A DNA stretch of 51,527 nt from a virus (lineage: Duplodnaviria > Heunggongvirae > Uroviricota > Caudoviricetes): positions 1 through 51,527 of IMG/VR virus record IMGVR_UViG_3300031998_000026. One strand, written 5' to 3'. Position 1 is the stretch's first letter, and the number at the start of each line of letters is the position of its first letter. The notes beneath the pieces are model-generated. The model did not search any database, had not been told where the DNA came from, and saw only the letters and a list, made by a program, of their open reading frames with translations. Positions 29,850-51,527 of this stretch are shown here, in pieces. The position numbers and the translations under genes are program-made.

Positions 29850-29890
29850 TTGCCATGCATATATGTTCTTGACAGACGGAGGGAAGCAAC

Positions 29891-30910: not shown

Positions 30911-30918
30911 GGCATGAC

Positions 30919-31821
30919 ATGCGCACATACGAGCTTCTGGTTGCGGACAGGACGGTGAAGCCGAACTCCAAGAGCATGTCGCTGGTGCGCACCTCGGTCG
31001 GGATGGACCAGGTGCGCATCCTCTTCGACGACGCGGAGTGGATGGACTTCCCCGTGACGATAACGTTCGCCTCGAAGGACGACATGGTAACGCAGGCGCT
31101 GGTGCTGGCAGCCATAGACGGCTCCGAGTACGTGGCCGAGGCATACTCGACCGTGCCGTGGGAGGTAATAGACGAGACGGGCAAGGTGCGGGTGACCATA
31201 CAGGGAACCGACTCGCAGGGCAGACACATCATCACCGCCAAGGGCTCTCCGCTCACCGTCGTGGAGGCAGGCGACGTCGACGCGGGAGACACGCCGCAGG
31301 ACGCGCCTACCGTCGACGAGTGGAGGCAGGCGTACTCAGACGCCATGGCGGCAGTGGGGCAGGCGTCCTCTCTGGTGAGCACGCTGCAGTCGAGGCTGGA
31401 CGAGATGGTCGAGGCTGCGGGGTCGGCGCTCGACGAGAGGATCGAGGAGCTGCACGTACCGGCGACGGCTGAGACCCTCGGCGAGGTCATCGTCGGAGAC
31501 GGCCTCGGCGTCGCGGAGTCGGGCGAGATATACGTGACCGAGGTCACCGGCATAACGCCGTCCGAGCAGTCGCAGATAAGGAACCTCGCCCGCCTCGCCA
31601 CGTACTGCTTCGACACGAGCTTCGACGAGCAGGGGGCGGTGGAGGACACCGCGAAGGTCAAGGCGTCGGCAATCCCGATAGCGACGGCGTCGACGCCGGG
31701 GTCGGTGATGCCTGACGGCACGACCATAGCCGTCGGTTCGGACGGCATGATAAGGGTGAACCTCTCGGACGCGCTCATATCGCAGGTCGCGGACGCGGTG
31801 GCCGAGAGGCTCTCCGGATAG
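30919..31821 (+). CDS. BppU-like protein, paralog 2
   Basis: MRTYELLVADR...LVRTSVGMDQV...FDDAEWMDFP...IITAKGSPLTVVEAG; clearly homologous to 27943. Confidence 0.7.
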   Translation: MRTYELLVADRTVKPNSKSMSLVRTSVGMDQVRILFDDAEWMDFPVTITFASKDDMVTQALVLAAIDGSEYVAEAYSTVPWEVIDETGKVRVTIQGTDSQGRHIITAKGSPLTVVEAGDVDAGDTPQDAPTVDEWRQAYSDAMAAVGQASSLVSTLQSRLDEMVEAAGSALDERIEELHVPATAETLGEVIVGDGLGVAESGEIYVTEVTGITPSEQSQIRNLARLATYCFDTSFDEQGAVEDTAKVKASAIPIATASTPGSVMPDGTTIAVGSDGMIRVNLSDALISQVADAVAERLSG

Positions 31822-34560: not shown

Positions 34561-35508
34561 ATGCGCCTCCAGCTGCTAGTCAACCACTACAGGGAGCCGG
34601 GCTCCGTCGTGGCGAGGTTCATGCGCTCCGTGACGATGCAGGAGTCGGTGCCGTGGGACGAGGTGGAGGTGCTGGTCGGCAGCGACGGCACGACGCTCGG
34701 CGAGTGCGAGTCGCTCCTCGTCCTGTTCGGCGTGCCAGCCAGGCACGTGGCGCTCCCGCACGCGGGGGTGTGCGCCACGCGCAACGCGCTGCTCGGAGAG
34801 GCGACCGCCGACTACGTCATGTTCTGCGACGTCGATGACGCGTTCCACAGCACGCTCGGGCTCTGCAAGCTGCTCAAGGCCATCGACGACCTCGGCACGG
34901 ACGTGATAGCGTCGCCGTACGACGTCGAGGAGAGGGACGGGGATACGTCGCGGTACCGCGTCGAGAGGCGCGACACCCTGCACGTCCACGGCAAGGCGTT
35001 CAGGCGCGCGTACCTGGAGGAGAACGGCATCCGCTTCCCCGGCGAGATGGAGTTCAGCGGCGACATGTACTTCCTGTGGCTCGCGTTCAACATCGGGGGC
35101 AGCGTCGCGTGGATGACCGAGTCGTTCTACGCGTGGCGGCACAGCGAGGGCTCGATAACGCGGGCGAACCCGTGGCACAGGGTAGAGTCCTACGGCCAGA
35201 TGCTCAGGTGCTACGAGCTGCTGCATGACGACCTCGTGCGCCGCGGCAGGGACGACCTGCGCGAGAGGCTAGTCGCGGCGACGTTCGCGATGGCGTTCTG
35301 CCACTTCCACGACCCGTCGTACGCAGGCGGGCCGGAGCGGTCGGTCGACGAGATGGTCAGGCTCATGAGGCTGTACGTCGCAAGGCACGCGGACGAGTAC
35401 CGCGCGCTCCCGTACGAGGCGAAGAGGGACGCCCTGCATGGCAGGAGGCGGAGCCTCGGGGACGTCGGGTGGATGGACGAGTGGACGGAGAAGATGTGCG
35501 GGCGCTGA
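34561..35508 (+). CDS. glycosyltransferase family 2 (GT-A), soluble
   Basis: HAGVCATRNALL..ATADYVMFCDVDD (DxD), NGIRF...GDMYF, YAWRHSEGSITR; no TM segment seen. Confidence 0.85.
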   Translation: MRLQLLVNHYREPGSVVARFMRSVTMQESVPWDEVEVLVGSDGTTLGECESLLVLFGVPARHVALPHAGVCATRNALLGEATADYVMFCDVDDAFHSTLGLCKLLKAIDDLGTDVIASPYDVEERDGDTSRYRVERRDTLHVHGKAFRRAYLEENGIRFPGEMEFSGDMYFLWLAFNIGGSVAWMTESFYAWRHSEGSITRANPWHRVESYGQMLRCYELLHDDLVRRGRDDLRERLVAATFAMAFCHFHDPSYAGGPERSVDEMVRLMRLYVARHADEYRALPYEAKRDALHGRRRSLGDVGWMDEWTEKMCGR

Positions 35509-36270: not shown

Positions 36271-36395
36271 CCACCACCCAAGGTGCCGAGAAATGCGGAG
36301 GAGGATTCACTGGCGGATAGGGTAGCTCCCGAAAGGGCGGACACACCCGCCGTCCTTCCGCCACTTCCGCATGGGTGTCGACTATGGGGTGGTGG
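36271..36395 (+). ncRNA. candidate cis-regulatory structured RNA leader of the HNH gene
   Basis: Nested helices CCACCACCC/GGGTGGTGG, ATGCGGAG/TTCCGCAT, TGGCGGA/TCCGCCA enclosing GGG-tagct-CCC and GGCGG-acacac-CCGCC. Confidence 0.55.
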
Positions 36396-36403
36396 TTATC
36401 TTT

Positions 36404-37387
36404 ATGTTCACCGAAGAGGAGCTCGCGAACGAGGAGTGGCGGCCTGTCGTCGGGTATGAGGGTATTTACGAAGTAAGCAGCCTCGGTAACCTTAGAAGCG
36501 TGGAGAGAGAAATCACTACGCGTCGAGGATACAGACAGACAGTTCCCTGTAAAAAGTTAACCCACAAACATAGTAAGAATGGAATTGCTGCTGTCGACTT
36601 ATGGAAAGACGGCACCAGAAATACGATTCGCGTAGAAGATATCGTTGCTGACGCATTTCTTCAAAAGCCGAGTGGCGGCAAGCGCATATCTCATGCAAAT
36701 GGTGTAAACAGCGATGTTAGAGCCTGCAACCTCACATGGGTTGACGATGAAAATGGAGACATTCCGGATGAGGAATGGAGGCCAATAGTTGGATATGAGG
36801 GGCTATACGAAGTAAGTAATTTGGGCAGGGTAAGAAGCAATGCGCGTAGAAAATGCAGGGGTGGAATTGTTAAGCCGGTAGCATCTGGATCTGGGTATTT
36901 AGCCGTTACGCTATCAAAAGAATCGGCCACATCTCGTCGACTTGTTCATAGGTTGGTGGCTGAAGCGTTCCTTGACAATATCGAGAACCTTCCTGTAGTA
37001 AACCATAAAGATGAAGATAAGACCAACAACTGTGCGTCCAATCTCGAATGGTGCACGGTTTCATATAACAATACATATGGAACTAAAATTGCGAGAATGA
37101 TTGAAAGCCGTAATTTGAATAGCGAAGAAATACGCGAGTCAATGCAAAGGGCCGCTGCAAAACGAGATTATTCCACGGCAATAGAGAGGTTTGGACGACC
37201 AGTTCTTCAGTTTGACTTAGACGGAACATTTGTGTGCTGGTGGCCAAGTCTTGGGTCGATAAAGAGAAAGCTCGGATTTAGCGCAGCCAATATCAGATGT
37301 GCGTGTACCAGAACTGAAGGATATTCGAGCGGCGTTTTTCATGGCTATTGGTGGTGTTTTGAGGAGGACTATCCATGCGCAAGCTAG
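36404..37387 (+). mobile_element. free-standing homing endonuclease: NUMOD4 + degenerate HNH + NUMOD4 + HNH + NUMOD1-like
   Basis: Two EEWRP.VGYEG.YEVS.LG..RS motifs; VHRLVAEAFL..VNHKDEDKTNNCASNLEWCT; PVLQFDLDG; low GC. Confidence 0.9.
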
Positions 37388-38418
37388 ACATCTGTGTTCC
37401 ACATTGGCAGGAAACCCCGGAGGAGATGGAGCCGTTGCTCGACTCCATAAAGGTGCAGCGCGCAGTCGACCTCTCGCAGGTCGGCGTGGTGATAGCGTAC
37501 GACGGGCCTGACGCGTCGGAGCTGCCGCTCGACGAGTGGCGCAGCCGATACCCGTTCGCCATCGAGGACGTGCACCCCGAGAAGGGTGGCGTGTCCCACA
37601 CGCGCAACGCGGCGCTCGACGCGAGCGAGGCCGAGTTCGTCATGTTTGCCGACGCGGACGACTGCCTCATGGACAACAGGGGACTGTTCATCGTGTTCAG
37701 GGAGATGGACGCCGACCCCAACCCGCAGGAGCTCGCGGTCATGGGCGTGTCAGAGAAGGACGCCGGCAAGGGCTTCGACTTCCTCGTGTGCGACTTCGTC
37801 GAGGAGAACAAGCGCCCCGACACCGGCAAGATGGACTACCTGCCACACGTGAACAACATGACCTTCGTGCATTCCCAAGTCGCACGCAGGCAGTGGCTCG
37901 TCGACAACGGCATCCGGTTCAACGACGCGCTCACCGTGCACGAGGACAGCTACTTCGTATGTCTCTGCCGCGAGCTGGTGAAGCCGTACCGTGGCAAGTA
38001 CTGTGCCCACCCGTGGTTCCTGTGGTGCTGGCGCGACGCGAGCGTGTGCCGCCACGACCCTGACTACATACTCAAGACCTACAACAACATGCTCGACTCG
38101 AACGACGCCCTCGTAGACGAGTTCACCAGGCGCATGATGCCGGAGAAGGCGAACTCCTACTGCGTCATGATGGTGTTCGACGCCTACTACTGCATGAACA
38201 AGCCAGAGTGGATAGAGGTGAACCACAAGGACTACCGCGACAGGGTGGAGAGGCGGTTCGCCGAGTACTTCCGCAAGCACGAGTCGAAGTGGGACGCCGT
38301 CTCCCCGCAGGAGCGGGCCGTCATATCGAACGGCGTTCGCCAGCGGTCTGTCGGAGAGGGCATGCTCATGGAGGCGATCACGATAGACGACTGGCTGAAG
38401 CGCATAAAGTCGCTGTAA
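37375..38418 (+). CDS. glycosyltransferase family 2 (GT-A), soluble
   Basis: LDICVPHWQE, GGVSHTRNAALD..AEFVMFADADD, GIRFNDALTVHEDSYF, FLWCWRDASVCR. Confidence 0.85.
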   Translation: MRKLDICVPHWQETPEEMEPLLDSIKVQRAVDLSQVGVVIAYDGPDASELPLDEWRSRYPFAIEDVHPEKGGVSHTRNAALDASEAEFVMFADADDCLMDNRGLFIVFREMDADPNPQELAVMGVSEKDAGKGFDFLVCDFVEENKRPDTGKMDYLPHVNNMTFVHSQVARRQWLVDNGIRFNDALTVHEDSYFVCLCRELVKPYRGKYCAHPWFLWCWRDASVCRHDPDYILKTYNNMLDSNDALVDEFTRRMMPEKANSYCVMMVFDAYYCMNKPEWIEVNHKDYRDRVERRFAEYFRKHESKWDAVSPQERAVISNGVRQRSVGEGMLMEAITIDDWLKRIKSL

Positions 38419-39832: not shown

Positions 39833-41593
39833 ATGCCTGACAACATCGAGAGGGTCACGGAGCACCCTGTCGGTTCGGTGGGCCTTCGCGTCGTCCGCGA
39901 CTGGGTGAAGGGCCTGGTCGCGAACGACGTCAAGGTCATCGAGACCGACTCGGTCCCCGAGAGCCCGGTCGACGACACGCTCTACGTCGTAGTCGACGGC
40001 GATGACGCCACCTTCATGCTCTGCACCGACGGCGTGCTCAGGGAGGTCGGCGCCGGCGTCGAGACGTACGGCGAGCTGGCGGGCAAGCCCGAGGTCGACG
40101 GCAACGAGGTCGTCGCGGGAGACCAGGCGCACGAGTCGCTCGGCCTCGTGGGCACCGACGACTTCGTCACCACCCCGACCGGCAAGACGAGCGGACTCGA
40201 GATCGTGCTCGCGGCCGGGACGCCCGACAGCCCGACCGTCATCACCGAGATAGACGACTCGGCGGCGATGCAGTACAGCACCGTCCACACCAGCTCCAAC
40301 CACTACATCAACAACCAGCTCGACGCGATCAACGCGGCGCTCGCCGGCAAGCTCAACCTCCTGTTCGTCAACGAGCTGCCTGACCCCCCGACGGCCAACA
40401 CGCAGTACTACGTCGCGACCGAGAGCGACGGCGTGTACGACATCTGGATCGTCGACTCCGTCGGCACCATGCGAAGCGCGGGGACGACCGAGATGGACCT
40501 CGGCGGGCTCGTGCGCGACACCAGGTCGGTCGCGGGCCACGACCTGAGCGCGAACATAACCGCAGCACAGATGGAGGCGGCGCTGAAGGACGAGCCCGCG
40601 ACGCTCACGCACAAGACCATCGACGCCGACGACAACACGATATCCGACCTCACGACCTCGAACCTCAAGAGCGGCGTGCTGTCCACGGCCGTGTCGTCTG
40701 GCTCCACGAACACCCAACTGTCGACCGCCAAGGCCGTCTACGACTACGCGGTGCCCAAGACCAGCGGCACCAGCAAGATCTACGGCACCAACGGCTCGGG
40801 CGCGGCGAACAACTACTCGCTCGCCACGTCAATCTCGTCGAGCTCCACCGACACGCAGCTGCCGACCGCCAAGGCCGTCTACAGCTACGCGGTGCCGAAG
40901 ACCACCGACGCCAACAAGGTGTACGGATCCTCGAACAATTTCGACCGTTCGACCTCGGTATCTTCCAGCTCGACCGACACGCAGCTGCCGACCGCCAAGG
41001 CCGTGTACGGCTTCGCCGTGGCGAAGACCACGAACACGAACCGCGTGTACGGCACCGACGGCAGCGGTAACGCGCTGCAGTACACAGCCACGGGCACGTT
41101 CAACAGCACGGCGAGCAACCAGCTGCTCACGAGGGCAGGGGCCTACAACCTGTACAACGGCGTCGTGAGCGGCAACTACGACACGGTGTTCTGCGGCAAC
41201 TTCATGAGGACCACGGAGCAGTCCGTCTCCGCCAACACGTCCACCGCCATCAGTTGCACCGGCAGTGACGTCTACCGCTCCTCGCTGGTACAGCTCAACT
41301 CCAACGGCTGCAAGATCCTCGTGGCCGGCACGTACCTGTTCCAGGTTGTCGCCCGCCTGTCCGACACTAGCGGGGCCACGCGCCACTGGTACCTCGGCGC
41401 CGGTACCTCGATGACCGACGACGAGAACGGCGGCTCGTGGCTCTACACGTACGAGCGCCACAAGGGCGAGGGGTCGAACCTGCTGTACTGCACGGCGGGT
41501 CTGATAATCAAGCCGCAGGTGTACATCGCAACGAACAGCGGCACGCTCAAGTACGCCAAGATGCGCGTGTTCAAGCTCAACGACAAGCTGTAG
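39833..41593 (+). CDS. Ser/Thr-rich fibre protein with internal repeats and beta-sandwich (C1q/BclA-like) tip, paralog 1
   Basis: Repeats SSSSTDTQLPTAKAVY(S/D/G)(Y/F)AVxKT...K(V/I)YG; C-terminal GCKILVAGTYLFQV domain. Confidence 0.7.
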   Translation: MPDNIERVTEHPVGSVGLRVVRDWVKGLVANDVKVIETDSVPESPVDDTLYVVVDGDDATFMLCTDGVLREVGAGVETYGELAGKPEVDGNEVVAGDQAHESLGLVGTDDFVTTPTGKTSGLEIVLAAGTPDSPTVITEIDDSAAMQYSTVHTSSNHYINNQLDAINAALAGKLNLLFVNELPDPPTANTQYYVATESDGVYDIWIVDSVGTMRSAGTTEMDLGGLVRDTRSVAGHDLSANITAAQMEAALKDEPATLTHKTIDADDNTISDLTTSNLKSGVLSTAVSSGSTNTQLSTAKAVYDYAVPKTSGTSKIYGTNGSGAANNYSLATSISSSSTDTQLPTAKAVYSYAVPKTTDANKVYGSSNNFDRSTSVSSSSTDTQLPTAKAVYGFAVAKTTNTNRVYGTDGSGNALQYTATGTFNSTASNQLLTRAGAYNLYNGVVSGNYDTVFCGNFMRTTEQSVSANTSTAISCTGSDVYRSSLVQLNSNGCKILVAGTYLFQVVARLSDTSGATRHWYLGAGTSMTDDENGGSWLYTYERHKGEGSNLLYCTAGLIIKPQVYIATNSGTLKYAKMRVFKLNDKL

Positions 41594-41604
41594 GAGGGGC
41601 TGAC

Positions 41605-43377
41605 ATGAGGATAATCAGGGACGGCCACACCATCTACAACAGCATCGACAACACGGGCTCGAGCAACGAGGCCGCGCTTGGCGCCCAGTATGCAAAGGGC
41701 AGGCTCGACACGCTTGACGGCCGCTTTAGCGGATACTACACCAAGAGCGAGGTCCACGACCTGCTCACGGGGGTGGCGGCGACGAACATCGTCCCGACGG
41801 TGCCCGCGCTGCCAGAGCCCAACACCTACTACCTCGTCGGCAACGACGGCGAGGGGTACGTCCTCCACTACTACGACACGGAGCTCGAGCACGCCATCGT
41901 CGGGTCCTACGAGCTCAACCTCACTACCGCGATACCGCAGCGCGAAGAGCTCCCGACCGCGGGCGTCGGCTACGGCGGCAAGGTGTTCCAGTACACGGGC
42001 ACCGGCCAGGCGCAGTACGTGCGCGGCAAGTGGTACGTCTGCCAGCAGCAGGCGTACTACGGGTGGCTGGGCGACGGCTCGGCCACCACGGTGTACACGC
42101 GCGAGGAGGCGCCCGATGTCGGCGACGTCATCTACGACGGCACCGGCGCCGCGTACTCCCACGAGGTGGCGTCGCTCTCCGGCACGACCATGACCGACTC
42201 CGACGGCGGCACGTGGACGCGCAGCTCGGCGGCGGACAAGACCGAGTGGGAGTGGGCAGACCTCGCCGACGGGGCAATCTCGGGCGTGTGGAGCACCGAC
42301 CTCGCCGAGGCCAGGGTGCTCGTGTCCGACGCGGGCGGCAAGGTCGCCGCGTCCGGCGTGAGCACCGAGGAGCTGGGCATGCTGTCCGGCGTGACATCGA
42401 ACATCCAGACGCAGCTCGGCAACATAGAGACCACGAACCTCAAGAGCGGCGTGCTGTCGACCTCGGTCAGCTCGAGCTCAACCGACGCCCAGATCCCGAC
42501 CGCGAGGGCTGTGTACGGCTATGCGGTCCCGAAGACGAGCAGCGCGTCCAAGGTCTACGGCACAAACAGCTCCGGCACGGCCACGAACTACTCGCTCGCC
42601 ACGTCGGTCAGCTCCGACTCCACCGACTCACAGGTGCCGACGGCGAAGGCCACCTACAGCTACGCGGTCGCGAAGACCACCGACGCCAACAAGGTGTACG
42701 GAAGCTCCAACAACTTCGACCGCGCGACGTCTGTCGGCAGCAGCTCGACCGACACGCAGCTGCCGACCGCCAAGGCCATCTACAGCTACGCGGTGCCCAA
42801 GACAACCGGCGGCAGCAAGATATACGGCACCAACAGCTCGGGCGCGGCGCTGAACTACTCCATCAACGACACGTACACCAGCTCCGCAGACAACACGGTG
42901 TTCACCCGCAAGGGCGCGTACAACCTGTACAACGGCGTGTTCAGCGGCAACACCGCCATGGTGTTCGCGGGCAACCTGATGCGCAACTCCTCGCAGTCCG
43001 TCTCCGCCGATACGTCGACGGCCATCAGTCTTACGGCGAGCGACATATACCGCTCTGGGCTCATCCAGCTCGCGAGCAACGGATGCAAGATCCTGGTCAC
43101 GGGGACGTACTGGTTCCGCTTCGTCGGACGCCTGAGCGACACCATCAGCACGTCTCCGACCATAAGGTCATGGTATCTGGGCGGCGGCGTCAACACGATG
43201 CTGGACGACCAGGCCGGTGGGCAGTGGATGTACACGAACAAACGTCACAAGGGCGAGGCCACGCTGCTGCGCTACTGCACGGCGGGCGAGGTCATCAAGC
43301 CGTACGTCTACATCGACGGAAACGCCGGCTCCCTGCAGTACGTGACGATGCAGGTGTTCAAGCTCAACAACAAGTAA
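41605..43377 (+). CDS. Ser/Thr-rich fibre protein, paralog 2
   Basis: GGAGGGG RBS, ATG 41605; RVLVSDAGGKVAASGVSTEEL..LSGVTSNIQTQL; same repeats and tip (GCKILVTGTYWFRF). Confidence 0.7.
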   Translation: MRIIRDGHTIYNSIDNTGSSNEAALGAQYAKGRLDTLDGRFSGYYTKSEVHDLLTGVAATNIVPTVPALPEPNTYYLVGNDGEGYVLHYYDTELEHAIVGSYELNLTTAIPQREELPTAGVGYGGKVFQYTGTGQAQYVRGKWYVCQQQAYYGWLGDGSATTVYTREEAPDVGDVIYDGTGAAYSHEVASLSGTTMTDSDGGTWTRSSAADKTEWEWADLADGAISGVWSTDLAEARVLVSDAGGKVAASGVSTEELGMLSGVTSNIQTQLGNIETTNLKSGVLSTSVSSSSTDAQIPTARAVYGYAVPKTSSASKVYGTNSSGTATNYSLATSVSSDSTDSQVPTAKATYSYAVAKTTDANKVYGSSNNFDRATSVGSSSTDTQLPTAKAIYSYAVPKTTGGSKIYGTNSSGAALNYSINDTYTSSADNTVFTRKGAYNLYNGVFSGNTAMVFAGNLMRNSSQSVSADTSTAISLTASDIYRSGLIQLASNGCKILVTGTYWFRFVGRLSDTISTSPTIRSWYLGGGVNTMLDDQAGGQWMYTNKRHKGEATLLRYCTAGEVIKPYVYIDGNAGSLQYVTMQVFKLNNK

Positions 43378-43389
43378 TCGCCGGGTGAC

Positions 43390-43422
43390 ACGCTGGCGCG
43401 GGATACGGTCCCGCGCCAGCGT
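43390..43422. repeat. perfect 14-bp inverted repeat (no U-tract)
   Basis: ACGCTGGCGCGGGA-tacgg-TCCCGCGCCAGCGT. Confidence 0.8.
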
Positions 43423-43445
43423 CGACGGCACCACGAGAACGGAGA

Positions 43446-43661
43446 ATGGCGATGCCGGCACCATCAATGCGGTTCGCGGACCTCGCGAACATGAAGACGC
43501 TGTTCGCCGGGCTCAGGCTCAAGTACGAGCCGAGGGACGCGGCGATAGTGAAGGACGTCGAGTACGTCCACACGGACGAGAACTACAGCTCGTCCGACAA
43601 GACCAAGCTGGACGGGATAACGAGGATAACCAACGCGGAGCTCGACGAGCTCCTCGTATAG
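43446..43661 (+). CDS. small fibre adaptor-like protein
   Basis: RFADLANMKTLFAGL...VHTDENYSSSDKTKLDGI, ends RITNAELDELLV. Confidence 0.7.
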   Translation: MAMPAPSMRFADLANMKTLFAGLRLKYEPRDAAIVKDVEYVHTDENYSSSDKTKLDGITRITNAELDELLV

Positions 43662-43674
43662 GAGAGTGATGACG

Positions 43675-44595
43675 ATGGCATATCTCGACAACGACGGAGT
43701 GCTGTACCTCTGGGGAAAGATCAAGGCCAAGTTCGCAGACAAGGGCGACGTCGCCTCCAAGAGCAGCACGACCCCGCTCGCGAACGGCACGGCGGCGGTG
43801 GGCTCCGAGACCGCGTACGCCGCGGGCGACCACGTGCACCCGACCGACACCACCAGGGCCGCCGCGGCCGACCTTACCGCACACACCGGAGACGCGGTCG
43901 CGCACGTTACCGCGGCGGAGAGGATCGCGTGGAACGCCAACACCGACAACGAGGGCACCGTGACGCAGGTGTCCGCCGGCATCGGCCTCGACGGCGGCGA
44001 CATCACCACGACCGGCACCGTCAAGGCCAAGCTGAAGAGCGAGACCGCCCACAGCGCGAGCTCCGCCACCCCAAGCAACACCGCCGACAGGCAGTACGCC
44101 GTGGGAGTCGACGCCGACGGGTACCTGTCCGTGAACGTGCCCTGGACCGACGATGACACCACCGACCTCACCCAGATGACGGGCGTGCTCGGCATCGCCA
44201 ACGGCGGCACCGGCGCCTCCACCATAACGGGCATCGTCAAGGGCAACGGCACGGGAGCGATGACCGCCGCGACCGCCAGCGACATCAGCACGCTCCTCGG
44301 CAGCACCGCCGTCGACCGCGCCACCGCCGACGCGAACGGCAACGACATATCGGCCACCTACGCCAAGAAGACCGACATCGCCTCGATGTACGAGTACAAG
44401 GGCAGCGTCGCGAGCGCCGCAGCGCTCCCCGCCTCGGGACAGGAGGTTGGCGACGTCTACAACATCGAGTCCTCCTCGGCGTACGGGGCCGCGGGCGCCA
44501 ACGTGGCGTGGAACGGCACCGCATGGGACAGCCTTGGCGAGATATTCTCCATAACCGCCGTCACCAATGCGGAGCTCGACGCCATCTGCGTGTAG
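43675..44595 (+). CDS. virion fibre protein (putative; alternative starts 43666/43669)
   Basis: MAYLDNDGVLYLWGKIK; YAAGDHVHPTDT; GVLGIANGGTGA; RATADANGNDISATY; YKGSVAS..LP..VGDVYN; ends AVTNAELDAICV. Confidence 0.75.
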   Translation: MAYLDNDGVLYLWGKIKAKFADKGDVASKSSTTPLANGTAAVGSETAYAAGDHVHPTDTTRAAAADLTAHTGDAVAHVTAAERIAWNANTDNEGTVTQVSAGIGLDGGDITTTGTVKAKLKSETAHSASSATPSNTADRQYAVGVDADGYLSVNVPWTDDDTTDLTQMTGVLGIANGGTGASTITGIVKGNGTGAMTAATASDISTLLGSTAVDRATADANGNDISATYAKKTDIASMYEYKGSVASAAALPASGQEVGDVYNIESSSAYGAAGANVAWNGTAWDSLGEIFSITAVTNAELDAICV

Positions 44596-44638
44596 GGAGA
44601 CAAATAGGATTGCGTAAGTTTTGAAAGGCAGGTAGCCG

Positions 44639-44905
44639 ATGGCATATCTCGACAACTCGGGGGTCTCGTACCTCTGGGGCAAGATAAAGGGCGCGTTCGA
44701 GACCAAGGACGCGACCATCGTCAAAGACGCCTCGTACGTTCACACGGACAACAACTACACCACGGCTGAGAAGACGAAGCTGTCCGGGATAGAGACTGGC
44801 GCCGAGGCCAACGTGGTCAAGGGCGTCGACGACACCACGATATCCATTGACGCGAGCGGCATCATAAGCCTCGCCCTTCCGAACCTGGACGGAGCAGGTT
44901 ACTGA
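44639..44905 (+). CDS. small adaptor-like protein upstream of LRR gene
   Basis: MAYLDNSGVSYLWGKIK...VHTDNNYTTAEKTKLSGIETGAEANV...ends SLALPNLDGAGY; TGATG overlap. Confidence 0.75.
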   Translation: MAYLDNSGVSYLWGKIKGAFETKDATIVKDASYVHTDNNYTTAEKTKLSGIETGAEANVVKGVDDTTISIDASGIISLALPNLDGAGY

Positions 44906-46188
44906 TGGGATACGGTATAACGAACGACGCGTACTATCCCGCCATAGCGTCTGCAATCCGCAGCAAGGCTGGCACCACGTCAACGTACAGGCCGTCCGAG
45001 ATGGCATCGGCCATTGCGGCCATAGAGACGGGCATGGACCCAGTCCATGCGATCTTATGCTATGTGCCAAGCGGCTCAATGAGTGGAAGCATGTCATTTG
45101 TGAAATCAAATGCTTTCGCCTACTGCTCAGCCCTCACGACCGTCAACATGCCATCCTGCACGACGGTCGGCGACGGCGCGTTCCAGAACTGCACCTCCAT
45201 TACGACCGTCAGTCTCCCGCTCTGCACGTCAGTCGGCGGCAGCGCGTTCGCATCATGCTCAGCCCTCATGACCGTCAGCTTGCCAAAGTGCACGTCAGTC
45301 GGCAACTACGCGTTCCAGAACTGCACCTCCATTACGACCGTCAACCTCCCGCTCTGCACGTCAGTCGGCAACAGCGCGTTCCAGAGCTGCTCGTCGCTCA
45401 CTACAGCCAGCCTCCCCGCCTGCACGACGGTCGGCAACAGCGCGTTCCAGAGCTGTTTCGCCCTCTCGTCCGTCAGCCTGCCTGCCTGCACGACTGTCGG
45501 CAGCAGCGCGTTCCAGAGCTGCTCAACCCTCGCGTCAATCGACCTCCCCGCGTGCGAGACGGTCGGCGACGCCGCGTTCCAGAACTGCTCAGCCCTCGCG
45601 TCCGTCAGCTTGCCAAAGTGCACGACGGTCGGCAGATACGCGTTCGCATCGTGCTCGTTGCTCGCGTCCGTCAGCTTGCCAAAGTGCACGACGGTCAGCA
45701 GCGGCGCGTTCTATAGCTGCTATTCTCTAGCAACCGTCAGCCTGCCCGTATGCACGACGGTCGGCGACTACGCGTTCTATAGCTGCAGCAGGCTCACGAC
45801 CGTCAACCTCCCGTCCTGCACGTCTGTCGGCGGCTGGGCATTCTCTGGCTGCCCGTCGCTCGCGACCGTCAGCCTCCCGCTCTGCACGTCAGTCGGCGGC
45901 TATGCGTTCTGGAACTGCCCCTCCCTCACGACCGTCAGACTGCAAAAATGCACTGTCATCGGCACTGCTGCGTTCTTACGGGACTACAAGTTCGTCAGCC
46001 TGTACCTCACTTCGGTTTCGAAGGTGACAACGCTACTCAGCAAGGACACATTCAACAGCACGCCCATCGGCGGCTACAGCGCGTCGGCAGGACGGTACGG
46101 CTCCGTCTACGTCCCGGCATCGCTCCTCAACAGCTTCAAGACCGCCACAAACTGGGCGTCGATATCAAGCCGCATAGTAGCCGGATAG
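44905..46188 (+). CDS. BspA-type LRR protein 3 (12 full 22-aa repeats, 45151-45942, plus caps)
   Basis: PxCTxVGxxAFxxCxxLxxVxL tandem array with a 66-bp period. Confidence 0.9.
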   Translation: MGYGITNDAYYPAIASAIRSKAGTTSTYRPSEMASAIAAIETGMDPVHAILCYVPSGSMSGSMSFVKSNAFAYCSALTTVNMPSCTTVGDGAFQNCTSITTVSLPLCTSVGGSAFASCSALMTVSLPKCTSVGNYAFQNCTSITTVNLPLCTSVGNSAFQSCSSLTTASLPACTTVGNSAFQSCFALSSVSLPACTTVGSSAFQSCSTLASIDLPACETVGDAAFQNCSALASVSLPKCTTVGRYAFASCSLLASVSLPKCTTVSSGAFYSCYSLATVSLPVCTTVGDYAFYSCSRLTTVNLPSCTSVGGWAFSGCPSLATVSLPLCTSVGGYAFWNCPSLTTVRLQKCTVIGTAAFLRDYKFVSLYLTSVSKVTTLLSKDTFNSTPIGGYSASAGRYGSVYVPASLLNSFKTATNWASISSRIVAG

Positions 46189-46205
46189 AATGGAGCTGAA
46201 CTATC

Positions 46206-47417
46206 GTGAACGGAATCACCAACGGCGCGCACTACGCGGCGATAGCGTCGGCCATCCGCAGCAAGGCAGGCACGACCAGCACCTACAAGCCGTCCGAGAT
46301 GGCATCGGCCATTGCGGCCATAGAGACGGGCATGGACCCAGTCTATGCGATCGCGACTGTCAAACCAACTGGTTCTATAGGTGGAAGCGCGTCGTTCGTA
46401 AAACCATACGCAGCTTGCGGGAGCAACGAAGTCACCTCTATCAACCTGCCATCCTGCACGACGGTCGGCGACGCCGCGTTCCAGAGCTGCTCGTCGCTCG
46501 CGTCCGTCAGCTTGCCAAAGTGCACGTCAGTCGGCAACTACGCGTTCCAGAACTGCACCTCCATTACGACCGTCAGTCTCCCGCTCTGCACGTCAGTCGG
46601 CAACAGCGCGTTCCAGAGCTGTTTCGCCCTCTCGTCCGTCAGCCTGCCAAAGTGCACGACGGTCGGCGACTACGCGTTCTATAGCTGCAGCAGGCTCACG
46701 ACCGTCAACCTCCCGTCCTGCACGACTGTCGGACGCGAGGCATTCATCTGCTGCAGCTCCATTACGACCGTCAGCCTGCCGGTCTGCACGTCAGTCAGTA
46801 CCTACGCGTTCAGGAGCTGCTCTTCCCTCACGACCGTCAGCTTGCCAAACCTCGCGACGGCTGGATACGGCGCGTTCTACGGCTGCAAGACCCTCAAGTC
46901 AATCAGCCTGCCCGTATGCACGACGGTCAGCGAATACGTGTTCTACAGCTGCTATTCTCTAGCAACCGTCAGCCTGCCCGTATGCACGACGGTCGGAAGC
47001 TACGCGTTCGCCTACTGCTCGTCGCTCGCGTCCATCAGCCTGCCCGCCTGCACGACGGTCTACAGCTTCGCGTTCAAATGGTGCTATTCTCTAGCAACCG
47101 TCAGCCTGCCCTTATGCACGACGGCCGACTGGGACGCGTTCGCCTACTGCTCGTCGCTCGCGTCCATCAGACTGCCCAAGTGCACCTTAATAGGCAGCAG
47201 CGCGTTCAGGTCCTGCTACAGGCTTGTCAGCCTGTACCTCAACTCAGTATCGCGGGTGACTACTTTGTCTGCAAGTGCATTTGCCTCGACTCCAATAGGC
47301 GGCTACAGTGCGTCGGCCGGACGGTTCGGCTCCGTCTACGTCCCGGCATCGCTCCTCAACAGCTTCAAGACCGCCACGAACTGGGCGTCGATATCGACGC
47401 GCATAGTTGCCGGATAG
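46206..47417 (+). CDS. BspA-type LRR protein 4 (11 full 22-aa repeats, 46449-47174, plus caps)
   Basis: Same caps and repeat consensus as 44905; GTG start. Confidence 0.88.
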   Translation: MNGITNGAHYAAIASAIRSKAGTTSTYKPSEMASAIAAIETGMDPVYAIATVKPTGSIGGSASFVKPYAACGSNEVTSINLPSCTTVGDAAFQSCSSLASVSLPKCTSVGNYAFQNCTSITTVSLPLCTSVGNSAFQSCFALSSVSLPKCTTVGDYAFYSCSRLTTVNLPSCTTVGREAFICCSSITTVSLPVCTSVSTYAFRSCSSLTTVSLPNLATAGYGAFYGCKTLKSISLPVCTTVSEYVFYSCYSLATVSLPVCTTVGSYAFAYCSSLASISLPACTTVYSFAFKWCYSLATVSLPLCTTADWDAFAYCSSLASIRLPKCTLIGSSAFRSCYRLVSLYLNSVSRVTTLSASAFASTPIGGYSASAGRFGSVYVPASLLNSFKTATNWASISTRIVAG

Positions 47418-47430
47418 GAAGGAACGTAAC

Positions 47431-47652
47431 ATGATCGTTGAAGAACCATATGGCGACGACCTCGTTCGCCATTATTCCGACAGGGGCATGATGATGCTCC
47501 AAGTCGAGACGGGCATCAAGTATGCAGAAGCCATCGACGTCGTCCCCTGCAGGTACACATACGAGGAGACGGACGAGCCAGTCGACGAGGATTCGGGAGA
47601 CGAAGCGAGTCCCGAGGAGCTGCTCGCAATACTTCTTGGAGGTGCACGATGA
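47431..47652 (+). CDS. small acidic hypothetical protein
   Basis: AAGGAA RBS; LVRHYSDRGMMMLQVETGIKYAEAIDV..YTYEETD. Confidence 0.7.
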   Translation: MIVEEPYGDDLVRHYSDRGMMMLQVETGIKYAEAIDVVPCRYTYEETDEPVDEDSGDEASPEELLAILLGGAR

Positions 47653-48047
47653 TAACGCGCAGGCATGCACGAGAGATACGCAGGGTCATGGAGGTCGCGG
47701 CGATCTCGCTCGGCGACTCCGACGCGCTCGACGCACCGGAGATGTTCCCGACATGGGAGCAAGACGGGTCGTACGCATCTGGCGACAGGGTCAGGTACGA
47801 GGACGTTCTCTACCGCTGCCTGCAGTCACACGACGCCCAAGCGCAGTGGACGCCCGACCAAGCCCCGAGCCTCTGGGCCAAGGTGCTCATTCCCGATCCT
47901 GACGTCGTGCCCGAGTGGGTGCAGCCCGACAGCACTAACCCGTACAAGTCAGGCGACAGGGTGACGCACAACGGGCAGACATGGGAGTCGACGGTCGACA
48001 ACAACGTCTGGGAGCCGGGCGTCTACGGGTGGTCCGTCGTCGGCTAG
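47649..48047 (+). CDS. protein with two Trp-rich CBM5/12-like carbohydrate-binding repeats
   Basis: WEQDGSYASGDRVRYEDVLYRCLQSH..WTP..SLW; WVQP..YKSGDRVTHNGQTWES..WEPG. Confidence 0.8.
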   Translation: MITRRHAREIRRVMEVAAISLGDSDALDAPEMFPTWEQDGSYASGDRVRYEDVLYRCLQSHDAQAQWTPDQAPSLWAKVLIPDPDVVPEWVQPDSTNPYKSGDRVTHNGQTWESTVDNNVWEPGVYGWSVVG

Positions 48048-48241
48048 CGGCACATCTCGTGACTCAGGAGCTCGAGCCTGTCCGCGCGACGGCCGACCTC
48101 GGCGCCCATAGCCACGAGCGCCTCGGGATGCTCTATCTCCGTCCATCTGGCTCGGCAGCCGACGCCCTCCAGGAAGAGCTCGACCGCCCTCAGGTACTCC
48201 GAGCACTCCGCGAGCTCGTCCGCAACCTCTACCACGTCCAT
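48044..48241 (-). CDS. small antisense-oriented hypothetical protein (65 aa)
   Basis: GGAGGGGG/GGTGGAG upstream of ATG 48241; MDVVEVADELAECSEYLRAVELFLEG... Confidence 0.55.
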   Translation of the reverse strand: MDVVEVADELAECSEYLRAVELFLEGVGCRARWTEIEHPEALVAMGAEVGRRADRLELLSHEMCR

Positions 48242-48360
48242 CTCCACCAGCCCCCTCCAAGGTCTGGCGCGAAGCATACCCCATATGGCGGGCGCGGTTG
48301 CCCACGGTTCGGCGGACGATACGAACAGGCACATATATATAAACAAAGGCGCGATGCGCC

Positions 48361-48390
48361 GAGGGGCCTTGCGGGGGCCCCTTTTCTTTG
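48361..48390 (+). terminator. intrinsic terminator before lysis module
   Basis: AGGGGCC-ttgcggg-GGCCCCT-TTTCTTT. Confidence 0.65.
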
Positions 48391-48405
48391 TAAGGGGTGG
48401 TTCCA

Positions 48406-48792
48406 GTGGACCAGGCAATGACACAGGTGGTAGTCGCTGGGGTGATCGAGCTGCTCATGCTGCCCCTGCTGCTGTTCGCGCTCAAGCACCTTCTCGGCAA
48501 GAGGCTCGACCAGTTCGACGAGAAGCGCGAGGAGGCGCGTGTCGAGCGTGCCGAGAACGAGCGCAGGAAGAACGAGCAGCGGGAGGCCGAGCGAGACATC
48601 ATCTTGGCAATGGCGCGAACGATGCTCCTCAACAACTGGGAGCGGTGCATGGACAAAGGGTACTACACCGTAGAAGAGCGCGAGGTCTACCACAAACTAT
48701 GGGTTTCCTACGCGCAGGACGGGGGAAACGGCGTAATCGAGGAGATAGCCCCACGCATCCGCGCCCTTCCGATGGATCCGCCGAAGGAGTGA
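48406..48792 (+). CDS. membrane-anchored lysis-region protein (TM + coiled coil, Y..GGNG family)
   Basis: N-terminal hydrophobic helix; EREVYHKLWVSYAQDGGNGVIEEI; precedes holin. Confidence 0.7.
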   Translation: MDQAMTQVVVAGVIELLMLPLLLFALKHLLGKRLDQFDEKREEARVERAENERRKNEQREAERDIILAMARTMLLNNWERCMDKGYYTVEEREVYHKLWVSYAQDGGNGVIEEIAPRIRALPMDPPKE

Positions 48793-48836
48793 CATGACGG
48801 CCGCCGAGAGGGCGGCCTTTCTGTAAGGAGGTCCGT

Positions 48837-49136
48837 ATGAACATCAACTGGCAAGTGCGACTCAAGAGCCCCGCGTTCTGGCTAGGGCTGATCGGCGCGA
48901 TTGGTGCGCCGGTGCTGGCATACCTCGGCATCGCCGCGTCCGACCTCACGACGTGGGGGAGCGTGGGCGACGTAATCGTTGCCACGTTCAGCAACCCCTA
49001 CCTGATCACGCTCGTGCTAATGGCCCTGCTGTCCTTCTTGGGCGTTGTGGTCGACCCAACCACCAAGGGCATTGGCGACTCCAAGCGGGCGCTCCACTAC
49101 AAGGAGCCGCACGACGACTACGCGGGGCTGAGATGA
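48837..49136 (+). CDS. holin (phiLC3/Phage_holin_1-like)
   Basis: MNINWQVRLKSPAFW; two TM segments; GVVVDPTTKGIGDS. Confidence 0.9.
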   Translation: MNINWQVRLKSPAFWLGLIGAIGAPVLAYLGIAASDLTTWGSVGDVIVATFSNPYLITLVLMALLSFLGVVVDPTTKGIGDSKRALHYKEPHDDYAGLR

Positions 49137-50566
49137 GCCTGAGGGCCATCGACATCGCGTCGTGGCAGGAGGGCATAGTGCCGAGCCGGGTCGACTGCGA
49201 CGTAGTGATAGTCAAGGCGACTGGCGGCACGTGGTACGAGAACCCGTTCTTCGAGGAGTGGGCCGACGACGCGCTCGCCTCCGGAAAGAGGCTCGCAATC
49301 TACCATTACGCAGTCGAGTCGCAGGACGACCCCGACCCACGGGCCGAGGCTGAGTTCTTCCTCGACCACGTCCGCAGGTACAGGGGGAGGTTCGTCCCGG
49401 CCCTCGACTGGGAGGCCGACGCCATGGCGCTGCCGCAGGAGTGGGCGCTCGAGTGGATGCGGGCCGTCGAGGACGAGCTCGGCGCCACGCCGGTGTTCTA
49501 CGCGTACGCGAGCCACCTCAACTCCGCGGACTACTCGAAGGTGGCCGAGAGGTACCCGCTGTGGATGGCGAGCTACCTGAGCCGCTACGAGGGAGCCGGA
49601 TGGGTCGACGACCCGCGCAACACGTGGGACCTCGGCTCGTGGGACCGGATGCTGATGTACCAGTACACGTCCACGGGAAGGGTCGCAGGATACGACGACG
49701 ACCTCGACCTGAGCGTTTTCTACGGCACGGGCGCCGACTGGGATGGCCTGTGCGGAGGGGGGGCTGACATGGGCAGGAGAGACGAGATACTTGACGCCCT
49801 GCGCTCTCAGCTGGGCGAGGACTACTACTCGATGAACTACGGCGCTTCCGAGGGATTCGGGGGCGTGGGGACGAACTACGTCGGGGCAGGATGGGGGTGC
49901 GCCGAGCTTGCGAGCTTCGCGTACAACACGACCATCGGCACCGACTACGTGGGCAGCACGTGGAACTTCTACGGCGACGCCCTCGGTCAGGGAACGAACC
50001 AGGGCGTCGGGGAGTTCTACTTCGTCGACGACCCCGAGCCCGGCGACATCGTCTGCTACATCAACTCTGGCCACAACGGCAGCGACTACGACGACTGCGG
50101 GCACGTCGCCGTGTACGTGGGCGACGGCATGGTGATCGGTGCTCGCGGCATCGGCAAGCCGACCGGCGGCTACTACCTGAACATCGGCGTTCAGGAGACC
50201 TCGATAGAGCTGCAGTCGCTCGGCGGCGGGTGGCGCTACATACGCTGCACGAGACTGGACGGCGAACAGCCAGAGCACGAAGGGCAGAAAACCGAAGGGA
50301 ACGGAGAGAGGAACATGCTTGCTTGCATAATCAGCATCGACGACGACCACCACGGATATAAGACGGGCATGCAAGTACTCTGGACGCCGATGGGCTTCGA
50401 GTACATCAACCATCCCGACTCGATAAGCTTGCTTGACGAGATGAGCGTGTACTACACTGGCAAGCCCCTCATGCGCGTGCACAGCGGGCACGACCATCCT
50501 TGGGTGGCCCGCCTCGAGCAGGTGACCATAGGCGACGGTGCCAAGACCAAGGGAACCGTGAGGTAG
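49133..50566 (+). CDS. endolysin: GH25 muramidase + NlpC/P60-type peptidase + C-terminal domain
   Basis: IDIASWQ, VIVKATGG, ALDWE, LWMASY, MYQYTSTG..DLDLSVFYG; WGCAEL...PGDIVCY...GHVAVYVGDGMVI; ATGA overlap with holin. Confidence 0.9.
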   Translation: MSLRAIDIASWQEGIVPSRVDCDVVIVKATGGTWYENPFFEEWADDALASGKRLAIYHYAVESQDDPDPRAEAEFFLDHVRRYRGRFVPALDWEADAMALPQEWALEWMRAVEDELGATPVFYAYASHLNSADYSKVAERYPLWMASYLSRYEGAGWVDDPRNTWDLGSWDRMLMYQYTSTGRVAGYDDDLDLSVFYGTGADWDGLCGGGADMGRRDEILDALRSQLGEDYYSMNYGASEGFGGVGTNYVGAGWGCAELASFAYNTTIGTDYVGSTWNFYGDALGQGTNQGVGEFYFVDDPEPGDIVCYINSGHNGSDYDDCGHVAVYVGDGMVIGARGIGKPTGGYYLNIGVQETSIELQSLGGGWRYIRCTRLDGEQPEHEGQKTEGNGERNMLACIISIDDDHHGYKTGMQVLWTPMGFEYINHPDSISLLDEMSVYYTGKPLMRVHSGHDHPWVARLEQVTIGDGAKTKGTVR

Positions 50567-50759
50567 CCGCGAACGGCCCCGCCGGGTGGTCGGCGGGGCC
50601 TGACGTGCCGCCGAGGGACGTGCGGGACGCCGTCCCGATGGCAGGCAGCGCAATGCACGTTAACGTCTTTTTCAGCAACCCAATGCGGTGCATTGCGGAT
50701 AGAGGTTGCATATCTTATAAAAAGAGCAGGCCAGACAAGCGCCTGACCTGCGAAAACTC

Positions 50760-50807
50760 TGGTGCGCCCTGAGGGACTCGAACCCCCGACCTTCGGATTA
50801 GAAGTCC
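50760..50807 (-). other. attP core: 3' half of tRNA-Arg(UCU) from the anticodon arm to CCA
   Basis: Reverse complement GGACTTCTAATCCGAAGGTCGGGGGTTCGAGTCCCTCAGGGCGCACCA; no 5' half; lies between lysin and integrase; flanking CTGACCTGC-like repeats at 50726-50734, 50743-50751, 50832-50840. Confidence 0.88.
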
Positions 50808-50931
50808 CAATAATTATGATAAGCACCATCTCAGACCTGCGGTTATGTCGGGTCAAATCCCAAAGTTATCACTATTTCTCACTATCTCTCACTATTCTGT
50901 TGTGGTGGGTTACGGTTGAAACAATTATGAA

Positions 50932-51527
50932 CTACGAGACCTCCCTCAGGTACTCGGACGTCCTGAGCGTCGCGACCGTCGCGTCGGCGTTCTGGTAGTT
51001 GGAGTAGCTCACCCTCTCGGAGTGCCCGTGCATCCTCGCGTTCGTCGAGTCGAGCACGCCCGCCTCCTGGCACAGGCTCTCGTGGGTCGCCCTCATCCTG
51101 GAGAGCGGTATGTAGCGAAGGCCGCGCAGCCTCCCGAGGTTGTTGCACCCCTCCTTCCTCGGGGCGTGCTTCGACGTCGACGGCTCGGCGAAGTAGCCCC
51201 TCCACCTCTTGCCGTAGTTCTGCCTCGACATGCCGCATAGCTCCGTCCTCGCGACGGCGCGCTCGGCCTCGGCCACGGCGCGCGCGTCGCCCATGTCCTC
51301 GGGCATGGCCGAGCGGTACATGTCGCAGACGATCTCGGACACCCTCGTGCCGAACGGCTCGAGGAGCGCGACCACCCTGACGCTCTTCCTGCTCTTCGTG
51401 CGGTGCCTGCCGTCCTTGCGGTTGTCGGCGTGGTGGACCGCCACCTGCGTCACCGCGACCCCCTTGATGACGGTGCCGCGGACGTCCATCGCCCTGATCG
51501 CGAACCCCTCCTCGAGCCTCAGGCCGC
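50932..51527 (-). CDS. int: tyrosine integrase, C-terminal part (5' end outside window)
   Basis: GLRLEEGFAI (catalytic R), SRMRAT, RMHGHS, SYSNY (catalytic Y); transcribed toward attP. Confidence 0.9.
   Translation of the reverse strand, partial: GLRLEEGFAIRAMDVRGTVIKGVAVTQVAVHHADNRKDGRHRTKSRKSVRVVALLEPFGTRVSEIVCDMYRSAMPEDMGDARAVAEAERAVARTELCGMSRQNYGKRWRGYFAEPSTSKHAPRKEGCNNLGRLRGLRYIPLSRMRATHESLCQEAGVLDSTNARMHGHSERVSYSNYQNADATVATLRTSEYLREVS

Follow-up and report, generated by a model that had tools for sequence, protein, structure and literature searches.

Segmental gene conversion between two tandem LRR_5 genes in the late tail-fibre region of a cattle gut siphophage

The stretch of DNA described here, which we call the window, comprises the first 51.5 kb (51,527 nucleotides, nt) of the 116,382-bp IMG/VR record IMGVR_UViG_3300031998_000026, for which CheckV gives a completeness of 91%. 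The public sequencing runs that contain the stretch are bovine gut metagenomes, and the virus is a siphophage of ~117 kb from the cattle gut. The window holds the siphophage late region, in which fibre-like genes occupy ~20 kb. Two adjacent genes in this region, LRR-A and LRR-B, encode proteins built of leucine-rich repeats (LRRs) and follow a small fibre-like adaptor gene. Their coordinates, and those of the other features mentioned below, are collected in Table 1.

Both proteins are BspA-type LRR_5 proteins with the solenoid fold of the solved members of that group. The Pfam entry LRR_5 (PF13306) matches LRR-A at 214.2 bits and LRR-B at 221.1 bits, with a gathering cut-off of 27.7. The array of LRR-A (45112-46035) consists of 14 units, 13 canonical and one degenerate unit of 22 amino acids (aa), and that of LRR-B (46410-47267) of 13; all 27 are in exact 66-bp phase, and both open reading frames (ORFs) are intact. 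The unit consensus, AF..C..L..V.LP.CT.VG.., fits the LRR_5 pattern of 22-23 residues, L..[VI].[LI]P....[VI]G..AF..C... The two proteins are 68% identical, and both genes have a G+C content (GC) of 0.61. The AlphaFold2 model of LRR-A has a predicted local distance difference test score (pLDDT) of 92.5 overall and of 56-85 across the first 70 residues. Its best PDB matches, identified with Foldseek, are 4fs7 (E 3.5e-10), 4gt6, PcpA (4cp6), 4h09 and TpLRR (6mlx), all of which are BspA-type LRR structures. A homologue search with the full LRR-A protein was dominated by repeat matches, none of them above 55% identity.

Table 1. Positions of the LRR genes, their shared blocks and neighbouring features in the window
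Feature	Position	Strand	Details
Fibre-like adaptor gene	44639-44905	+	88 aa, ends ...TTISIDASGIISLALPNLDGAGY; TGA overlaps LRR-A ATG by 1 nt
LRR-A	44905-46188	+	427 aa; helical N-terminal tag (N-tag) aa 1-51, linker, LRR units, C-terminal cap (C-cap)
LRR-B	46206-47417	+	403 aa; GTG start 10 nt downstream of GGAG; caps as in LRR-A
Conversion patch, N-terminal cap (N-cap)	44991-45045 = 46289-46343	+	55 nt exact, within codons 29-50
Collinear near-identical tract, offset +1232	45272-45389 = 46504-46621	+	A03/A04 = B02/B03; 118 nt, 2 mismatches
Collinear exact block, offset +1232	45715-45764 = 46947-46996	+	A10 (YSCYSLATVSLPVCTTV) = B09; 50 nt
Out-of-register exact block, offset +1166, one unit off	45430-45482 = 46596-46648	+	A05/A06 = B03/B04
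Out-of-register exact block, offset +902, five units off	45751-45822 = 46653-46724	+	A10/A11 (GDY-AFYSCSRLTTVNLPSCT) = B04/B05
C-cap exact block	46098-46148 = 47327-47377	+	
CBM_5_12 protein	47649-48047	+	Pfam match (two stretches); last gene of transcription unit
Fibre-like gene and LRR3, second split pair	27943-28821 and 28821-29849	+	292 aa ending ...ALALPVANEVGY; LRR3 342 aa, same N-tag; base 28821 shared
LRR4, natural fusion	31831-33618	+	595 aa; first ~284 aa 52% identical to 27943 fibre-like protein, then LRR_5, no N-tag
ORF in tape-measure position	15087-25514		3475 aa, single ORF directly before Dit and Tal
Dit	25518-26252		
Tal	26260-27891		
GT2 glycosyltransferase genes	34561-35508 and 37375-38418		Within tail-fibre block
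NUMOD4+HNH_3 homing-endonuclease gene	36371-37387		Between both GT2 genes; low-GC patch (0.50)

LRR-A and LRR-B share exact runs of 72, 72, 61, 55, 53, 51, 50 and 44 nt. As a null model, codons were permuted among units column by column in 1000 shuffles. The longest A/B run in the shuffled arrays had a mean of 21 nt and a maximum of 42, compared with observed in-phase array runs of 72, 72, 61, 53, 50 and 44 nt, so the blocks are not due to chance. An earlier, sequence-only reading of this stretch had reported four identities; all are exact (55/55, 72/72, 72/72 and 50/50), and further A/B blocks are present. The cap and array offsets resolve into a single collinear alignment at +1232, which carries most blocks, and the remaining units on this diagonal are identical at just 35-48 of 66 nt. 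The same reading had described the blocks as shuffled in order. Out-of-register copying is indeed real for the 'DY-AFYSCSRL' tract, but the YSCYS unit keeps its position (+1232) in both genes. Block breakpoints sit in the conserved CT.VG and AF..C scaffold. The closest unit pairs differ mostly by 2-nt codon replacements: B03 equals A02 save for codon 21 and A04 save for codon 12, each a 2-nt change, and such replacements between near-identical units fit what templated micro-conversion would produce. A-like blocks are dense only in the 5' third of the LRR-B array (46447-46724), and there are none in 46725-46900.

The N-cap combines two very different histories over a short distance. Between LRR-A and LRR-B, codons 4-28 differ at 12.8 of 19.3 synonymous sites (proportion of synonymous differences, pS, 0.66) and are saturated although the peptides are almost identical, while codons 29-50 differ at 0 of 15.8 (pS 0.00); the hypergeometric P value for this switch, calculated by hand, is ~2e-5. 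The syntenic relative L093 served as the outgroup for pS. Over codons 4-28, the A-B value is no lower than that between LRR-A and L093 (0.54). Over codons 29-47 and the C-cap (last 40 codons), the A-B values are 0.00 and 0.20, compared with 0.43-0.59 for either gene against L093, the C-cap itself giving 0.55-0.59. Since pS switches in this way and the paralogues are nearer to each other than to the outgroup in patches only, the pattern points to gene conversion after duplication, as the sequence-only reading had supposed. LRR-A and LRR-B are thus old paralogues in which segments have been converted since they duplicated, and the saturation of the unconverted cap segments implies that exchange is rare relative to mutation.

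The repeat scaffold is also uniform at the codon level. Scaffold Val is encoded by GTC in 39 of 39 cases (genome frequency 0.48), Thr17 by ACG in 20 of 22 (0.40) and Ala1 by GCG in 20 of 23 (0.38), a uniformity that exceeds codon bias for each of the three (P ~1e-6). It is a product of homogenization and at the same time a source of homology for more. Tandem LRR_5 genes at other metagenome loci contain comparable exact blocks, of 73 nt (L167), 63 nt (L105) and 57 nt (L164), which suggests that patchy exchange is a general habit of tandem LRR_5 paralogues, i.e. ordinary concerted evolution. These three contigs carry two to five such genes, with five in tandem on L164 (1-6998).

LRR-A and LRR-B are old tandem LRR_5 paralogues in a late tail-fibre operon, presumably tail-tip adhesins, and we consider it likely that they evolve in concert by ordinary homologous recombination and not by a programmed process. 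In the mechanism we propose, scaffold codons, which are nearly identical from one 66-bp unit to the next, would serve as homology, and ordinary homologous recombination, via the phage RecT annealing protein or the host machinery, would act on the units. Tracts of ~50-120 nt would be copied from one gene into the other, as a rule in register but now and then shifted by one or five units; whole units would be gained or lost too, and selection would retain useful new combinations. Exchange would take place on an evolutionary time scale, with no programmed diversification in each generation. A RecT is encoded at 60363-60854 of the record (profile match, 131 bits), and phage annealing proteins are able to recombine short, diverged sequences (PMC3945230, PMC8093625). 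RecT may accordingly be named as a candidate catalyst of the exchange.

Amino-acid entropy within the unit is highest at positions 21, 22, 3 and 4 (2.9, 2.5, 2.4 and 2.0 bits), i.e. in the GxxAFxxC segment in which the sequence-only reading had placed the variation. Y, S, N, G, D and W account for 69 of the 96 residues at these four positions (hand count), and positions 15, 6, 7 and 9 are variable too. The variable positions coincide with the generic x positions of the LRR_5 family consensus, and the pattern is therefore a generic one, which would differ from that of the variable lymphocyte receptors (VLRs) of jawless vertebrates. In the LRR-A model, DSSP finds strands at positions 10-12 and 18-19 of the unit. 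Canonically, the concave sheet of an LRR protein is built by the first strand, and in this protein the outward residues of that strand are mostly T/S and S/N, with little variation. The most variable positions would instead flank the buried Ala-Phe, on a face other than the concave sheet. The ratio of nonsynonymous to synonymous differences (pN/pS) is 1.08 at variable codons and 0.39 in the scaffold, with values of 1.4-2.2 at positions 4, 15, 21 and 22. Variable codons differ at every base (GGC/AAC, TGG/GAG, GCC/AAG), not at adenine-templated positions alone.

The setting of the two genes bears on their function. On neither strand does 43300-48360 contain promoter-like sites, and the + strand has no terminator-like site there; the first + strand terminator-like site past 43300 lies at 48361-48383. 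The fibre genes, LRR-A, LRR-B and the CBM_5_12 gene are thus read as one unit. The CBM_5_12 gene is followed by a holin (PF04531, from the annotation of a matching contig) and a GH25-type endolysin; a small ORF and the CBM_5_12 protein (47407-48047) directly precede them. Relatives of the CBM_5_12 protein, with identities reaching 66%, occur on at least 217 viral contigs.

The genes upstream of N-tagged LRR genes end in ...ALP-x5-GY, twice in this genome and once in L093. These C-terminal ends are of the same type: ...TTISIDASGIISLALPNLDGAGY in the 88-aa gene, ...TTISVNDDGKIALALPVANEVGY in the gene before LRR3 and ...YVALPNLDGVGY in the gene before the L093 LRR gene. The N-tag itself (aa 1-50; ~45 residues, helical, 44905-45054) matched 376 protein clusters in an exhaustive search. 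Among the matches listed, most carry it at the extreme N terminus and are 50-850 aa long, and the bodies behind it are LRR_5, DUF285, other, or without a Pfam match; in L054, it heads a 654-aa non-LRR protein. The matches P0121-P0270 often have two matching stretches, and for some the strongest match is at around residues 56-100 instead of the N terminus. A relative of LRR-A (P0005) has a BppU_N baseplate domain fused to LRR_5.

Two further LRR genes, LRR3 and LRR4, had been described as having homologous caps and repeats of lower GC. The lower GC (0.535 in LRR3 and 0.574 in the LRR part of LRR4) and the relatedness of the C-caps (50% and 42% identical to that of LRR-A) were borne out, but an N-cap is present in LRR3 only. 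The split pair of the 27943 gene with LRR3 and the fused LRR4 together suggest that the fibre-like and LRR proteins act as one structure, and they predict the fibre protein to which the tip attaches. Three genes (27943-28821, 30907-31821 and 31831-33618) have paralogous N-terminal domains starting with M(Q/R)TYELLV...VRTS(V/I)GIDQV; in one case a separate LRR gene comes next, in another the C terminus is different, and in the third an LRR domain is fused on. Over LRR3 and the next gene, of 339 aa (29001-31000), GC is 0.48-0.54, compared with ~0.63 elsewhere, which suggests that this portion of the fibre block was acquired more recently.

In L093, whose flanks are ~75-80% identical to those of our locus, the same neighbours enclose a single LRR gene, which has the same caps and encodes 338 aa. 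An LRR_5 gene is found upstream in only 4 of the 80 viral loci (L173-L252) that share the downstream CBM_5_12 gene, and a tandem pair in none. Taken together, these comparisons indicate that the LRR body is an exchangeable cargo of this slot.

LRR-A and LRR-B are probably made separately, as tail-tip adhesins or receptor-binding tips that dock via the N-tag. By inspection, neither protein has a signal-peptide-like hydrophobic stretch at its N terminus, where the helical tag is found instead; together with the absence of tyrosine and serine integrases, this leads us to read them as tail-tip adhesins. Each tip would join a fibre-like adaptor protein through its short helical N-tag, and LRR-B, which has no adaptor gene of its own, may share the site of LRR-A. 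The solvent-exposed x positions (GxxAFxxC, CxxL and LPxC) would be the likely binding surface. A prediction of the complex between the 88-aa protein and LRR-A residues 1-60 scored 0.00, which is evidence neither way. The possibility that a -1 frameshift fuses the adaptor gene to LRR-A was rejected on inspection: the frame fits -1, but no slippery heptamer is seen at GGTTACTGATGG.

Several points weigh against the reading of LRR-A and LRR-B as concertedly evolving tip adhesins. The catalyst could equally well be host recombination that depends on RecA. The face that carries the variable residues was read from DSSP and canonical LRR geometry. Diversifying selection on the variable codons is suggestive, as pN/pS is only ~1.1 overall and synonymous sites are saturated. 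Finally, the virion location of both proteins is deduced from the operon, the translational coupling and the fusions.

An alternative that accepts the gene conversion is that the two proteins are accessory cargo, binding rumen surfaces, plant fibre or mucus, or acting inside or on the host cell. Cargo is commonly carried at the site just ahead of the lysis cassette, the neighbours include the CBM_5_12 protein and glycosyltransferases, no function is known for the matching PHROGs families (18805 and 35892), and bacterial LRR_5 proteins are cell-surface adhesins according to the titles of 4fs7, 4gt6 and 4cp6. Against this stand the N termini, which have no signal-peptide-like stretch, the translational coupling to fibre-like genes within one operon, and the existence of fusions to a fibre domain (LRR4) and to BppU_N (P0005). 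Tyrosine and serine integrase families are absent as well, which makes lysogenic conversion unlikely. We regard the cargo explanation as unlikely overall.

A stronger version of the recombination argument would hold that the scaffold codons of the 27 repeats are kept identical to let RecT shuffle repeat segments, at an appreciable rate, between two tail-tip adhesins that are expressed together. We think this improbable. If true, RecT shuffling would be a homology-driven diversifier of host range that is independent of reverse transcriptase (RT), a viral counterpart of the antigenic variation that arises by segmental gene conversion.

The sequence-only reading had gone further and proposed a receptor-diversification system with the logic of VLR assembly. 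In its full form, this would be a dedicated, high-frequency combinatorial system, of the VLR, pilE/pilS or vlsE type, that shuffles LRR-A and LRR-B, and perhaps LRR3 and LRR4, in every infection cycle to give host-range variants. Such a system could draw on the out-of-register copied blocks, on variable positions rich in Tyr, Ser, Asn and Asp, on the many recombination substrates that identical scaffold codons offer, and on the RecT that the phage encodes. The genome does not provide the rest of what it would use. Both genes are complete, with ribosome-binding sites and caps, and no incomplete acceptor gene exists; a silent LRR cassette bank was not found, the 116-kb genome containing just four LRR_5 genes; and no non-coding template copy, as in the template/variable repeat pair of a diversity-generating retroelement (DGR), was found. 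LRR3 and LRR4 share exact matches of at most 20 nt with LRR-A and LRR-B and are therefore not donors.

The search for dedicated enzymes in the 116-kb genome (91% complete) led to the same outcome. RVT_1 (PF00078) had no match at E <= 0.1, in agreement with the claim that no RT is involved. Phage_integrase had no match beyond a 12.5-bit fragment containing stops, Resolvase had none, and the ERF, RecA and AAA_24 profiles gave no match either. The cytidine deaminase family dCMP_cyt_deam_1 (PF00383) was likewise without a match; APOBEC-specific models were not searched. The inverted repeats at the locus are just imperfect ones of 17-21 nt, none of them meaningful. The sequence-only reading had suggested looking for a recombinase in the rest of the genome; there is no tyrosine or serine recombinase, but RecT is present. 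Programmed shuffling is further opposed by the small number of long shared blocks (about six), by the part of LRR-B without an A counterpart (46725-46900), by the synonymous saturation of the unconverted cap segments, by the like pattern at unrelated tandem LRR_5 loci and by the constancy of LRR-A, at the DNA or protein level, in other assemblies. We therefore find a dedicated system highly improbable: there is probably no programmed VLR-like assembly, and concerted evolution of the ordinary kind, with help from RecT, probably accounts for what is seen.

The constancy of LRR-A can be followed across several datasets. An identical LRR-A protein of 427 aa was called on three contigs. One of them, a 117,767-bp ENA contig (ERZ27257204), has the same order of 88-, 427-, 403-, 73- and 132-aa genes, and another, a JGI contig from metagenome 3300028914 (L253), is identical to window positions 43779-46297. 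The latter ends with 10 aberrant bases (2520-2529 of L253; window 46298-46307) inside the 55-bp A/B N-cap block, a typical assembler break at a repeat. The sequencing runs that contain the stretch were analysed as unitigs (k=31, ~7-12x), a form of data that is blind to repeat order, rare variants and population diversity. Unitigs of two of these runs match the window with 0 differences, with holes at 45336-45452 and 47208-47324; a further run with a small share of the stretch (X3) gave one identical piece of 269 nt and otherwise short partial matches. There is no sign of hypervariability, low-frequency variants being beyond the reach of these data.

That the block order is an assembly artefact, in which short reads were mis-joined over the 66-bp tandem repeats to give chimeric blocks, is very improbable indeed: the source is a metagenome assembly, the k=31 unitigs break throughout the array with none spanning it, and the JGI contig stops within the 55-bp A/B block, but every exact repeat is at most 72 nt, which we assume to be below the read length of the libraries, the aligned unitigs of one run (X2) match with 0 differences, the LRR-A protein recurs on three contigs with the JGI contig identical over 43779-46297, and both ORFs are intact in perfect 66-bp phase.

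Regarding the rest of the genome, window positions 40000-51527 had no match among INPHARED phages (megablast), and hence no close relative there. Judged by the capsid, there are close relatives at 99% and 96% identity, but their contigs are short and do not extend to the LRR locus. The late region contains Dit and Tal genes after the tape-measure ORF, and two GT2 glycosyltransferase genes and a homing-endonuclease gene lie among the fibre genes (Table 1). At 3475 aa, the tape-measure ORF is of unusual length; if the customary scaling holds, the tail should be very long.

Several known systems resemble this locus in part. The BspA-type and TpLRR proteins share its repeat consensus, its fold and its variable x positions; the phage proteins differ from them in lying in a tail operon, in having neither signal peptide nor cell-wall anchor and in their helical N-tag, which is common to non-LRR phage proteins. 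Lamprey and hagfish VLRs are alike in their LRR scaffold, constant caps, variable internal modules and copy-type exchange over short homologies without RT. They differ in that no incomplete germline gene, flanking cassette bank or AID/APOBEC-type deaminase is present here, the variation here would not be centred on the concave beta-strand, and the exchange looks evolutionary, not somatic.

Other phage systems are alike in what they vary. A DGR such as that of Bordetella phage BPP-1, which acts on Mtd, also concerns a ligand-binding protein of the phage tail tip with localized hypervariability, but here there is no RT or template/variable repeat pair, the variation is not limited to adenines and the fold is another one. 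Shufflons and invertible tail-fibre segments depart further, since no site-specific recombinase is found here and the only inverted repeats are the short imperfect ones. Modular receptor-binding protein (RBP) loci, such as TP901-1 BppU/BppL and those of multi-RBP phages, likewise have a separately encoded distal binding module with an exchangeable body, and the BppU_N-LRR_5 fusion recalls them directly; unlike theirs, the binding body here is an LRR solenoid. A literature search on phage LRR or BspA receptor-binding proteins returned nothing directly relevant and no experimental study.

The closest parallels for the exchange itself lie in tandem gene families and in phage recombination. Sequence exchange between tandem LRR paralogues is known from the tomato Cf-4/Cf-9 resistance-gene clusters. 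These clusters and the BspA-like family of Trichomonas (PMC2843621) have tandem LRR paralogues with patchwork identity, whose repeat numbers change by unequal exchange and whose solvent-exposed x positions vary; here, by contrast, there are two genes only, they are viral, and phage RecT is the likely catalyst. The relaxed recombination of phage Rad52-like and RecT proteins (PMC3945230; PMC8093625) also acts on short diverged substrates, in phages that encode RecT as this one does, whereas the substrates here would be repeats that lie inside each of two genes, or are shared by them, in a single genome. The locus brings to light no new way of generating diversity. Tail modules of uncultured gut and rumen phages commonly include LRR_5 proteins, and with its old paralogues, its patchy conversion in and out of register and its gain or loss of whole units, this pair of genes offers a clean, quantifiable model of how such tips evolve.

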